This document shows, one piece after another, positions 29,120-43,526 of a DNA stretch of 64,000 bases. Where the stretch lies: positions 29,121-93,120 of IMG/VR virus record IMGVR_UViG_3300042147_000025, one strand, 5' to 3'. The notes under the pieces were generated by a model. It had not been told where the DNA came from. It saw only the letters and a list, made by a program, of their open reading frames with translations, and ran no database searches. This DNA is from a virus. A program made the translations under genes and the position numbers. Every line of letters starts with the position of its first letter. Within the stretch, counting starts at the first letter, position 1.

Positions 29120-29132
29120 ATTTTCCTTCAGA

Positions 29133-39053: not shown

Positions 39054-41750
39054 TTAAGATACAGAAGGCATAACGCGGAAGTTTGTACTCGTTCCGGCGA
39101 CACCTTCCGCCACATTGACCCAGCCCATCGATCCACCTGCTGCAATTGTATTATTCCAAATCTTGTGACCTCTGGAATAATAAAAACCATCGGTTGGAAT
39201 TGCTGTTGCATAGTGTGGGGTGACAGAGACAAGCATCCACTCTGCTGTTGTACCTAGTTGTGGGATGATCCTTTCGAATATCAAAGCACCACCGCTAGGG
39301 CAGGTGAGTTCAGGGACACCAGATGCACGTAGACTAATATTACCATTAGATCGTACAGTTACAGCACCGATTGCAAACAGTGTACGATGTTGTCCGGGGT
39401 TTGCCCAACCATGAAGATTTGAAATACGGATGGTCCTGTCAGCATTAGGGGACACATAGCAAGATGGATGGCCCTGCATATCAACGTTACCAGAAGCATC
39501 AGTAACAACAATTTTGTGTTGTCTGTTGTTCTTAAACAGTGTCATTCCGGTAGTTTGCTTACTGTTCTGTCCCACGTATTCCCAAGACTGAACTTGGTCA
39601 AGGCCTACACTACTAGCGGCAACCATGTTGTCAACAGTACCGAGCATAAACCCACCGGGGCCAACCTGTGTGCGGCTGCTGACACCTTCCCTGAAGATAC
39701 CCCCATCACCAACACCACCTTGAATGAAAGTAGTTGCTACAGTTTGGGATGCGCTAACTTGGTAAGTGCCAGACTTTCCAGTTGAACCTGTCAACTGTTG
39801 GACTATGGTGGTTCCAGCAGTAACCCCAGTACCCGTTAATGACATACCCGCAGCGAACCTGCCAAGCATTGACACATCGTTCTCAATCGTAAGGGTAGTT
39901 CCTGCAATGGAGCCATTACCTCGACCCGCACCAACCGTACCATTGCCAGCATTAGCATGTCTGTTAGCTTGGAAGAATTGTTGGGCGCCAGTTTGAATGT
40001 CAAAACAGATACCTACAGATTCAAACCAAGTTTCCATTACGCTATTGTTACTGCAAGCACCAAGCTCCTTCCAACCCAATCGGGTTTTTTCACAAGCAAA
40101 TTGCCCCATAGCCATTACACCAGTGGGGCAACGTGCAGCCTGACCAACACCGGCAATATCAGAAGTACTTTCACCATGACCACTTGCATTGTCTGCAACT
40201 TCCGAGGGGGTTGGGTCAAATGTCAACAGTACACCGATATCTGATATATCATCTGGTGCTGTGCTCATACCGCCTGTGTAACCGTTCTCAAGTTCAATTT
40301 GACCGTGTTGGCCAGTGAACATGTAGCCAATACTGCCAATAGCTCCACGGGCACCTACTTGACAATCCTGAAACTTAACAAACTGGTTTGGGAGAAGTGA
40401 ATGAGCATCGGTATATCCGGCTCTTGACCACACACATCTGTTGAAGTTAATGATTCTGACATTGAAGAATGTCGTGTGCCACAACCCACCTTGAGTGTAC
40501 CCAGCATCCCATTTTGCACGGGCATACAATCCCCACTGTGTTGGGTTGACAGGTGCCACGTTAAAGTCTGCTGTTGATGCTCCGCTTATAGTGAGGTTAG
40601 ACCACCCGCATTCTGCAACAACGCCAGAGTCAATTTCCACCATCCCGTAAGTAAATCCGGGATCTGCTACAGGAAGAGCAACAAACCCACCATTCCTCAC
40701 GCCGGGGCCGTCAACTGGAACTCTGGAGCGGATGGTTAGCTTAGTTACGGGGGAGAAGCCAGACCCAAGTCTAACCTTACCCCCACCCTTACTGGACGCA
40801 TATAGAGATGCTTTTTCACAAGCCAGAGTGTCATCTGTCACGCCGTCAGCCAGTCTACCAAACTCCTCCATCCAAATTTCACCGGAAGTAATTCTTTGGA
40901 ACCTGCCTGTTGGAACACCCACAACAGCGAAAGTATACCCACCATTATCCGGTTCTGTTGAAGCAGAGTCCCATATGAAATCACCACCGCCGCGTGGGCC
41001 AAGATAAGGTACTCTTGTGGACCACCCAGCATGATAGGATGCGACTTTATAAGTAAGGCCAGTCTTTCTTGGTAGCGTCAATAGGTCTGCAACAGAATCA
41101 ACAGACACCACAGCACTGCCAACATTCAGTGCTGCACCATCGGCAGCAAGGTCTGCAATGCTTACTTTTGTACTTAGAAGACCTTCTGTGTAAACAGCAG
41201 AAGCCTGTGCATCATTGGCGGAGTCTAAGGAGTCTTGAGCAGAAGCAGCGCTTTCAGCAGCTTTAGTAGTCGCTGTAACTGCACTTGATGCTGAAGACAC
41301 AGCCGAAGTTTGACTTGCTGTGGCACTATTGGCAGAAGCTGTTGCAGAGTTAGCCGAATTCGTAGCACTTACCGCAGCTTGGCTTGCAGACGCAGCAGCA
41401 GCATTCTTACTAGCCAATGCACCAGCAGCATCAGCAGCCACTTGAGCTGCCAAGCCATCACTATGAGCTGTCTGATCAAGCATCAACAATTCATTAATTG
41501 TTGTCTGCGTTGTATCATCTGTAATCTCAATATTACCAATGTTAGCATAGGATCTATATTCTAAGGAGAATACACTGACATGATACCAACCATTTGGAAC
41601 ATCAATTTCATATTCACCATCTTCATCTGTCTTAAAGTCTTTTGTGACAAACATAAGAACTTGTTCAGAGGTGTTGTTAGCTGTAATCCGTACAGATGAG
41701 TTTTTATATGGTTCGCCTGTAGGGGTGAGGAGGGTGCCTGAAAGAATCAT
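39054..41750 (-). CDS. tailspike / depolymerase (lambda Stf-like N-terminus plus beta-helix)
   Basis: ILSGTL...G.P...DEDGEY Stf-type head, Ala/Ser stalk, [11 protein letters not shown] pectate-lyase-like start. Confidence 0.85.
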
Positions 41751-41801
41751 ATTGTCCCTACTGGAGAGTGTACTGGAATATTGTTATTTTTACAGAAAGA
41801 T

Positions 41802-42035
41802 TTTCTTAGTTATACTCGCAGGCTAGGCCGTGCAATATTCATAATGAAGGAATATAACTAAGAAATGACCCTGTGCTAAGCATGTGTTGTGAGGAGAGGC
41901 ACGTAACACGCTATCAAGGTCAGAAGAACTTCTAAGGAGAGGGATAGAAGTTCTTTAAGTGCTGATATAGAGGAGAGAAGACATCAGCGGAGGAAACATA
42001 TCTTTTATGTAGAATTTAATTCTTGTCAGATATGT
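41802..42035 (-). ncRNA. candidate multi-hairpin RNA with CUCUCCU loops
   Basis: Five stems; three loops carry the same 7-mer (AGGAGAG on + at 41892, 41935, 41971). Confidence 0.55.
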
Positions 42036-42044
42036 GGGTGAAAC

Positions 42045-42126
42045 TGGAGCGGTTATTAGGGAATCCAACCCTCGACCTTTCTACCGTGAAGCGCTTCACA
42101 AATAGTTAAGACAGCATGGTAACCGC
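42045..42126 (-). ncRNA. tRNA-like element / pseudo-tRNA with Gly-like acceptor
   Basis: GCGGTTA/TAACCGC stem, U73-CCA, degenerate T arm; no canonical D arm or anticodon loop. Confidence 0.6.
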
Positions 42127-42195
42127 ATAATAAAACACTGACCTTTTGCACATTAACATCCACCGTTGATGGATAAGTGTGGTCAGTTTGTTACT

Positions 42196-42271
42196 TGGTG
42201 CCGTCACTAAGATTCGAACTCAGGACATCTTGCTTACAAGGCAAGCGCTCTACCGCTGGAGCTATAACGGC
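42196..42271 (-). tRNA. tRNA-Thr(UGU)
   Basis: Full cloverleaf, anticodon loop CT-TGT-AA, encoded CCA. Confidence 0.95.
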
Positions 42272-42276
42272 GAAAT

Positions 42277-42353
42277 TGGCTGGATATCGTGGGCTCGAAC
42301 CACGGACATTCGGATTAACAGTCCGATGCAACTACCAACTGTGCTAATATCCA
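42277..42353 (-). tRNA. tRNA-Asn(GUU)
   Basis: Cloverleaf, CT-GTT-AA, G73, encoded CCA. Confidence 0.93.
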
Positions 42354-42360
42354 AGAATTA

Positions 42361-42665
42361 ATGATGTCTTTCCATCAGTCACATACCAAGTATGACACCG
42401 AGTCTGGATTTAAAGTGCGAGTCGGCATTTAGCACACACTTCGTAGGCGCTACTAGACTTGTATGGCTCTCGTAGTCCACCCTTGTTAATCTAGCATCCC
42501 AGTTGAATGGGCTGAGCCTACTCGTCAACGTATTACGCCGCGTATGAACGTAATATCCGTATTCCCTTGTTCTCACCTTACACCGACAAACATATGGAAA
42601 TCGATGAGGTTGTTCCATATAACCAAGGAAATTCTTTTTCCTGCACTTTCCAGTGCAATTCACAG
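42361..42665 (-). ncRNA. candidate ~300-nt multi-branched ncRNA upstream of the tRNAs
   Basis: Dense nested stems, GGAA and GAAA-containing loops, starts just after a promoter. Confidence 0.55.
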
Positions 42666-42670
42666 TACCT

Positions 42671-42698
42671 ATTATACAGACTTATTTACAAAAGTCAA
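42671..42698 (-). promoter_or_regulatory. sigma70 promoter for the RNA locus
   Basis: TTGACT-16 nt-TATAAT. Confidence 0.65.
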
Positions 42699-42728
42699 AC
42701 TAAATCTTTCATTTTGTTATAAAAGATT

Positions 42729-42905
42729 TTAACTATCTGAATCAGGCATCACTTTCTTGAAGACAGTTCCGTAATGGCTAACACCCTCATGTTGATACTC
42801 CCACCGAAAGCAACCATCAATAAACTCTTCAGCACTTTCTTCAAATAAACATACACAATCTTTTTCTTCGGCCCCGCAGTCAGGGCAATAGTTTTCGTTG
42901 CCCAT
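42729..42905 (-). CDS. small Cys-containing hypothetical protein (58 aa)
   Basis: AAGGA RBS; MGNENYCPDCG...CVC. Confidence 0.55.
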   Translation of the reverse strand: MGNENYCPDCGAEEKDCVCLFEESAEEFIDGCFRWEYQHEGVSHYGTVFKKVMPDSDS

Positions 42906-42966
42906 TCTTGGGTTCCTTTGTTATTTATATTGAGTTCGTATTATACTCACACTTACTTATTAAAAG

Positions 42967-43176
42967 TCAAGCTTTTGGAATATTTATTTTAAACCAGCAA
43001 ACTCCGTAGTAGTCTACACACAAGAATTCAAGATCTTTTGTTTCAAAACTATTAATCCACTTGGCGAGTTCAGTATAAAAAGCAACTGAATTATATTCCC
43101 CGTATTGAGGCTGCATCTCACGTAACCAGCTAGGAATTTCAACCATCATTTTATTTCCAACGGTAAGCTCTTTCAT
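42967..43176 (-). CDS. hypothetical protein
   Basis: ATGA-coupled to the upstream gene. Confidence 0.6.
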   Translation of the reverse strand: MKELTVGNKMMVEIPSWLREMQPQYGEYNSVAFYTELAKWINSFETKDLEFLCVDYYGVCWFKINIPKA

Positions 43177-43526
43177 TTCTTGTCCGCTTTGACTATTCGA
43201 TTGATAAAATCTTCTAAACCTTTTGCGCGATAAGTCTTGCTGTTAGACAGCAGCCATTTATTAGACTTAGTGAAGTATGTAAATTTATCAATACCCCATA
43301 CACCCATCCTCTTTAAAATAGACTCGCCTAAACCATTATCTACAAGAATTTTTGCACAATGATAATCCATAAGGCTCATTTGCATATAAGCATTAAAGTG
43401 ATTGCCTGAACGAGACCCTTGCTCCTTAGCTTCTTTGATATGCTGTTGCACACCATCAAAACCTAGCTCTACAATTTTATTTGCTGTTCTCACTATAACG
43501 CCACTGGATTTTACATCTGTAATCAT
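43173..43526 (-). CDS. hypothetical protein
   Basis: ATGA-coupled to the polymerase-like gene. Confidence 0.65.
   Translation of the reverse strand: MITDVKSSGVIVRTANKIVELGFDGVQQHIKEAKEQGSRSGNHFNAYMQMSLMDYHCAKILVDNGLGESILKRMGVWGIDKFTYFTKSNKWLLSNSKTYRAKGLEDFINRIVKADKK

Follow-up and report, generated by a model that had tools for sequence, protein, structure and literature searches.

Phage tRNA islands have long been known for stable RNAs, among them species 1 and 2 of T4, the stable RNAs of T5, GOLLD and ROOL. The two T4 species (rnaC and rnaD, 139 and 119 nt) lie on the same strand as the tRNA genes and adjoin them (tRNA-Arg). Both are processed out of the tRNA precursor and have no known function. 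In T5, an annotated promoter is followed by a long stable RNA, RNAX (719 nt), and then by a same-strand tRNA (tRNA-Arg). The same island contains tRNA-like RNAs and HNH endonuclease genes, and the T5 stable RNAs are described as RNAs 'with unknown functions'. GOLLD and ROOL are large, intricate, pseudoknotted RNAs of phages and prophages, often found near tRNA islands and likewise of unknown function (PMC12286853). GOLLD consists of a conserved and a variable part, sometimes has tRNAs inside it, measures ~800 nt or more and possesses a universally conserved 3' region (PMC12286853).

We analysed a 64,000-nt stretch of viral DNA, referred to here as the window (positions 29,121 to 93,120 of IMG/VR record IMGVR_UViG_3300042147_000025). 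The record represents a complete virus genome of 93 kb that carries direct terminal repeats, and its large terminase (TerL) shares ~40% identity with those of Pseudomonas phages. An original prediction, made from the letters of the window, had proposed that its tRNA unit is headed by a distinct phage ncRNA. This claim held up, since the ~310-nt element, present in one copy in the source genome, has no Rfam match, contains an open reading frame that is not conserved and has homologs in which its helices covary. Taken together, these comparisons show that the element is a real folded non-coding RNA, distinct and outside Rfam 15.

By architecture, the closest described RNAs are T5 RNAX, T4 rnaC/rnaD and GOLLD/ROOL, none of which is homologous to the element. 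As in T5, a promoter leads into the RNA and the RNA into a same-strand tRNA. However, RNAX is more than twice as long (719 nt versus ~310 nt), and the element is built of modules shared with uncultured phages. The T4 RNAs are close in size to one of these modules, domain B, but they follow the tRNAs, whereas the element heads its tRNA unit. When we ran our covariance models R1 (domain B) and R2 (domain A) with filters off, neither gave a match to the RNA strand in the T5 region or to the annotated RNAs of the T4 region. The gene arrangement of the element, as read from the sequence, matches that of the T4 and T5 stable RNAs in tRNA units.

The likeness to GOLLD and ROOL, also part of the original prediction, stood for the genomic setting, since the element is phage-encoded and lies directly 5' of tRNA-Asn and tRNA-Thr. 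It did not extend to the RNA itself. The GOLLD and ROOL models gave no match at permissive thresholds in the window and 12 longer homolog loci, and the size differs, the element measuring ~310 nt and its relatives ~150 to ~650 nt. Moreover, GOLLD has its universal 3' region, while the element family has no universal part, domains A and B each occurring alone. In comparison with GOLLD and ROOL, the element is 2 to 3 times shorter, belongs to Pseudomonas-like soil phages and is combinatorially modular. It adds a well-supported, uncatalogued family from such phages to the stable RNAs of tRNA islands.

The features of the locus are collected in Table 1. The proposed promoter is present ahead of the element, and transcription probably starts at the predicted position. 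Both tRNAs downstream are recognised by the Rfam tRNA model (58.5 and 62.8 bits). We predicted no terminator-like site on the minus strand between the promoter and the tail-fibre gene, which starts at 41750. One promoter, no predicted terminator and an order that is kept in relatives suggest that the element is co-transcribed with the tRNAs, a tRNA mimic and an anti-Shine-Dalgarno (anti-SD) RNA.

Table 1. Promoter, structured RNA element with its helices, and tRNA genes, in positions of the window
Feature	Position	Strand	Description
Sigma-70-type promoter TTGACT-16-TATAAT	42698-42671	-	11 of 12 positions match; predicted start near 42664
Structured RNA element, ~310 nt	42664-42354	-	between promoter and tRNA-Asn
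P0, 5'-terminal hairpin, GGAA loop	42658-42641	-	-9.7 kcal/mol, z = -3.3
Domain A	42632-42561	-	closing stem around probable pseudoknot
P1, closing stem	42632-42624 with 42569-42561	-	compensatory in 8 of 9 pairs
S1 (ATATGG/CCATAT)	42620-42615 with 42597-42592	-	invariant in 7 homologs
S2	42609-42601 with 42586-42581 and 42578-42576	-	compensatory in 6 of 9 pairs
Domain B, ~120 nt	42560-42440	-	hairpin and three-way-junction domain
P2	42560-42558/42530-42528 and 42555-42549/42537-42531	-	hairpin, 11-nt loop
P3	42521-42516/42448-42443	-	encloses P3a and arm P3b-P3c
P3a	42511-42508/42501-42498	-	hairpin
P3b	42496-42490/42457-42451	-	arm
P3c	42480-42477/42466-42463	-	arm
P4 region with putative pseudoknot	42442-42397	-	two sequences
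P4 hairpin	42442-42435 with 42419-42412	-	shared with L133 only
Small hairpin CAUAC-UUG-GUAUG	42394-42382	-	constrained fold, window only
28-nt 3' block	42381-42354	-	hairpin UGAUG-GAAAGA-CAUCA (42377-42362) and U/A-rich tail abutting tRNA-Asn
tRNA-Asn(GUU)	42353-42277	-	ARAGORN and Rfam tRNA model
tRNA-Thr(UGU)	42271-42196	-	ARAGORN and Rfam tRNA model

The neighbours of the element have features of their own. The tRNA mimic region (42040-42195), 3' of tRNA-Thr, is 92% identical over 153 nt to positions 890-1036 of another 90-kb viral contig (L080; contigs are given by L numbers throughout), and in both the source phage and L080 it is missed by ARAGORN and the Rfam tRNA model. The anti-SD RNA (41802-42035) also occurs in L004, L005, L058, L113, L127 and L152. 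It starts with AGUUUCAYC, placed directly 3' of a tRNA end, the tRNA mimic or the 28-nt block, and its hairpins vary in sequence and keep CU-rich loops. A gene for a small cysteine-rich protein (42729-42905, minus strand) lies just 5' of the RNA promoter in 11 RNA-carrying loci (the window, L125, L127, L145, L152 and L155, and also L058, L124, L141, L142 and L149). The proteins measure 58-73 aa and fall into two unrelated families, and similar ORFs were seen by eye in L004 and L005, which are without the RNA. The gene seems to belong to the conserved phage backbone and not to partner the RNA.

We searched the catalogued RNA families for the element. Rfam 15 gave nothing except the two tRNAs over 41700-43000 of the window at E values up to 10. 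A search over 19 homolog-bearing loci likewise gave no match at the element (the 12 longer loci were scanned at E up to 1-2, and 13 loci together with the window at gathering score), so the Infernal comparison assigned it to no known family. A weak abiF match in L144 (E = 0.59) falls on a terminator hairpin and was dismissed. The element had also been said to lack tmRNA ends and a credible ribosome-binding site. In agreement with this, ARAGORN found no tmRNA in the window and Rfam gave no tmRNA match; no Shine-Dalgarno sequence precedes the GTG at 42663, which lies ~8 nt past the -10 box. In blastn and tblastn searches of the element against 50,697 phage records we obtained tRNA matches or none, and none of the searched cultured phages carries the element. 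Model R1 gave no match in a sample of 153 Pseudomonadota-side genomes.

In all, over 20 contigs from uncultured viruses or metagenomes yielded homologs. With the anti-SD RNA as an anchor, we first reached L058, which shares an 82-nt stretch with the window. Patterns derived from this stretch led to three viral contigs (L123, L124 and L125) and one metagenome contig (L127). A pattern of the central hairpin returned 18 viral contigs with 17 true homologs, of which L146 and L151 duplicate L145. The anti-SD anchor pattern otherwise returned mostly unrelated contigs, and the silence of R1 over 871 kb of them served as a specificity control. Several matches were discarded as chance. These were L147 (P2 pattern), one match of the P4 pattern inside a coding region, and, each with unrelated flanks, five exact matches of the domain A core pattern in 185,579 species genomes and three of its seven matches in metagenomes.

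The original prediction had described the strand as almost fully paired, and all the complementary segments that it listed are present in the sequence. By folding energy, the whole element was no better than shuffled sequence (MFE -85.3 kcal/mol versus -80.4 +/- 5.0 kcal/mol for shuffles, z = -0.98), so the sequence alone decides nothing about its fold. Covariation among homologs was far more informative and gave strong compensatory changes in domains A and B. It supported TATTACG/CGTAATA, GTAGGC/GCCTAC and CTAGA/TCTAG, and it added covarying helices that had not been listed before (AUUUCCUUG/CAAGGGAAU, CCU-CAUCGA/UCGGUG-AGG and CCCA/UGGG). Two of the earlier pairings were displaced. The TTCCT strand of AGGAA/TTCCT belongs to the covarying closing stem P1, and the GTCGGT strand of the long-range pairing GTCGGT/GCCGAC covaries with CAUCGA in S2; GCCGA has a nearer partner in UCGGU. 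A constrained fold that honours all covarying helices lies 1.6 kcal/mol above the unconstrained optimum. In the domain B alignment, G-U pairs are dominant at several positions and occur in 12 of 16 sequences at two pairs. Since the opposite strand would have A-C in their place, the RNA is read in the direction of the tRNAs.

For domain B we collected 16 distinct homologs, 71-94% identical to the window. In a plain MAFFT alignment, which is blind to structure, 17 of 27 pairs showed compensatory changes and 95.8% of the cells were paired. No shuffle out of 500 reached any of five measures in a control that ignores phylogeny, and when the partners were slid by 1-3 columns at most 5 compensatory pairs were seen. 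RNAalifold recovered the same helices from the MAFFT alignment (17 of 28 pairs compensatory). The alignment fitted to R1, which leans towards the model, raised this to 21 of 31 pairs and also recovered the outer stem of the junction. The joining strand between P2 and the three-way domain is strictly conserved. The P2 loop is invariant as well, a property built into the search pattern, and pattern-based retrieval fixes some loops as invariant in general. We considered a T-loop in P3a and rejected it because the invariant positions do not fit the motif.

Domain B also behaves as a unit in its own right. A terminator-like hairpin stands 3' of it, 4 nt away in L148 and ~48 nt away in L153, and in L144 it is held in a ~520-nt unit bracketed by two terminator-like sites. 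Its occurrence as a unit with its own terminator-like hairpin shows that the domain is autonomous. In contigs of four public runs the homology ends at 42563 and 42440, with unlike sequence beyond, and in three of the four runs we found domain B pieces of 64-122 nt with 1-5 differences from the window and unrelated flanks. One contig of these runs, 615 nt long and from a soil RNA-seq library, matches the window over 42440-42607 with 3 differences. This contig, which shows no ends and could derive from DNA, is compatible with expression. Of 17 domain-B loci that we examined, 6 have tRNAs within 1.5 kb, always on the same strand.

Domain A was found in seven homologs (model R2), in all of them within ~50 nt of promoter-like sequence. 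Fourteen of its 24 pairs are compensatory and 95.7% of the cells are paired, a result that none of 500 shuffles reached. If S1 forms, it crosses S2 and makes a probable H-type pseudoknot inside P1. Since S1 is invariant, covariation neither supports nor contradicts the ATATGG/CCATAT pairing. A shorter module 5' of domain B in L143, L144, L145 and L155 shares UAUGG and GUARGGUGAGA with domain A and may be a reduced variant of the pseudoknot domain. Domain A does not fit a riboswitch or a cis-regulatory leader in which an aptamer leads into an expression platform (a terminator or a sequestered ribosome-binding site), as domain B or other RNA modules follow directly 3', no terminator is predicted and no Rfam riboswitch matches.

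Ahead of domain A, the GNRA hairpin of the original prediction is present in the window as P0, and three of the six other homologs have an equivalent of unrelated sequence at its position. Only one of these clearly beats shuffles (L058, z = -2.4; L125, z = -1.45; L123, z = +0.15), and L124, L127 and L152 have no hairpin there. Judged by this comparison, P0 is an optional module.

The 3' third of the element is less widely shared. The P4 module is 88.6% identical over 44 nt to L133, and the two sequences differ by one compensatory pair and one G-U to G-C change; since there are two sequences only, the support for P4 is weak. GCCGA in the P4 loop (42426-42422) and UCGGU (42401-42397) may form a second pseudoknot. 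For the small hairpin that follows, we found no homolog. The final TGATG-GAAAGA-CATCA hairpin of the original prediction lies inside the 28-nt block, which recurs with 100% identity and between unrelated flanks in L005 and L058. In these contigs the block stands directly 5' of the anti-SD RNA, not of a tRNA. An internal promoter within the block was rejected because of its poor -10 box.

From the distribution of its parts, the element is less a single indivisible fold of 300 nt than a string of autonomous modules that have been shuffled. In L058, L123, L125 and L127, domain A has no strong domain B match beside it, and other conserved stretches follow 3'; the match in L127 is weak (22 bits), and L125 and L127 seem by eye to have a divergent variant in common. 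Conversely, most domain B homologs are without domain A. In L133, P4 is found 5' of domain B, so the module order is permuted relative to the window. No neighbouring protein common to all the domain contexts was found. The element shows domain shuffling at the level of RNA.

The element is dispensable in its own setting. L113 has the same upstream 58-aa gene and the same promoter, with the -10 box and the first ~18 transcribed bases kept, and then only ~40 nt before tRNA-Asn, tRNA-Thr and the anti-SD RNA. The same promoter without the element indicates that the element is an accessory insertion or replacement. Contigs that carry the neighbouring 415-aa protein at 98% identity have no element and hold unrelated cargo in its slot. 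Loci that have this promoter and these tRNAs and differ in having or lacking the element form natural pairs, which make the element tractable.

The slot itself, between the 415-aa polymerase-like gene and the tail-fibre gene (41750-43523 in the window; 7240-9010 in L002-L005), is hypervariable. In L002 and L003 it holds a long cysteine/histidine-rich ORF that by eye resembles an HNH endonuclease, and also a different ~450-nt non-coding leader with a tRNA-like element.

On balance, we lean towards the view that the element is a composite, uncatalogued RNA which is made as the 5' part of a tRNA precursor, released by RNase P and active in trans on a conserved host component, and which is accessory and horizontally exchanged. 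Its own sigma-70-type promoter would drive transcription of the element as the 5' part of the tRNA-Asn/tRNA-Thr precursor, and the transcript would extend across tRNAs, tRNA mimic and anti-SD RNA alike. RNase P cleavage at the 5' end of tRNA-Asn would most likely free a ~310-nt RNA, which would then act in trans as a stable fold that binds a conserved host component. Action in trans is suggested by loops that are kept across unrelated phage backbones and by the fact that no phage protein travels with the RNA. The target is plausibly part of the translation or tRNA machinery, since the companions of the element are tRNAs, a tRNA mimic and an anti-SD-loop RNA. With a tRNA mimic and an anti-SD RNA in one unit with the element, the phage seems to carry an RNA toolkit directed at the host translation apparatus.

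We weighed several other explanations. The element could be a cis-acting leader for the long tRNA/anti-SD transcript, giving 5' protection, a processing scaffold or anti-termination like put RNA or boxA, with no role once it is cut off. Domain A, always the first to be transcribed, would also suit such a role in cis, and it is promoter-proximal in all seven homologs. Furthermore, four of the seven, the window included, have a 5' hairpin ahead of it, no terminator is predicted ahead of the downstream RNAs, and in this phage clade the element always stands 5' of tRNAs or the anti-SD RNA. However, there are loci in which a terminator-like hairpin immediately follows domain B and no tRNA was detected within 1.5 kb, and L113 runs the same promoter and tRNAs without any such leader. 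The conservation of the loops, too, is far above what a mere stabiliser would need. We regard a cis-acting leader as less likely, but a role in cis for domain A, such as 5'-end protection or anti-termination, is a real alternative, as is separate processing of the modules.

Somewhat less probable again is an array of separately cut and separately acting small RNAs, like the stable RNAs of the T4 and T5 tRNA regions. The free recombination of the modules, with the order permuted in L133, would fit an array, as would the isolated occurrence of domain B in L148 and L153 and of domain A without B in L058 and L123. Against an array, domain A runs straight into domain B in the window, L124 and L152, the last pair of the one being directly followed by the first pair of the other, which leaves no spacer for a nuclease. 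No processing signal is evident between the modules either.

We also consider it improbable that recombination spreads the element without benefit to the phage, as a selfish cassette or as a relic such as a decayed self-cleaving ribozyme. The idea draws on the strict junction consensus (Y)UGACGAG - helix - CGAA, in which the helix is P3 and which resembles the hammerhead core, and on modules that are mobile, dispensable and inserted in a hypervariable slot (with the HNH-like ORF seen by eye in relatives). A hammerhead ribozyme was nevertheless rejected. Essential core positions vary (U stands at C3 in 10 of 16 sequences and G at A6 in 4 of 16, and G8 is altered or absent in 2 of 16), the flanks offer neither a stem III nor a cleavage-site strand placed as the topology requires, and no Rfam ribozyme matches. 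Moreover, strong purifying and compensatory selection acts on helices and loops alike, which speaks against this reading.

We give almost no credence to a protein-coding gene, the 94-aa ORF 42663-42379, for although this ORF occupies the whole interval and 9 of 16 homologs keep its frame open through domain B, the frame has stops in 7 of 16, domain B lengths (114 to 138 nt) differ by non-multiples of three, the open span 5' of domain B varies from 0 to 177 nt among homologs, the GTG start has no ribosome-binding site and lies a few bases from the predicted transcription start, the ORF has no PHROG match and no tblastn match better than E = 5, and the substitutions are compensatory in stems, not synonymous; the coding reading is thus refuted comparatively.

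Beyond the trans-acting RNA that we favour for this locus, the relatives allow a broader suggestion, which we put forward tentatively. Soil and water phages may share a pool of autonomous RNA modules, shuffled like protein domains into RNAs of 150 to ~650 nt that are placed within tRNA islands or next to them. Domain B, ~120 nt long and nearly invariant in its loops, would then represent a new functional class of RNA that either has a specific, conserved target in the host or forms a catalytic or self-assembling core. Since the domain is small and autonomous and its fold is defined by covariation, it is well suited to structure probing, cryo-EM and pull-downs.

Further modules that are not in the window were seen by eye in L058 (1380-1430), L123, L141, L142, L154 and L156. 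One of them is a hairpin flanked by CGUAGCC and GGAACUAAUU, placed just before a tRNA. Another carries the motif GGCUCUUGAAGCAC and occurs in L124, L127, L133, L143, L144 and L154. Group I introns were recognised by the Rfam model in three of the contigs (L149 4492-4723, L155 9597-9879, and L156 4862-5107 and 6331-6542).
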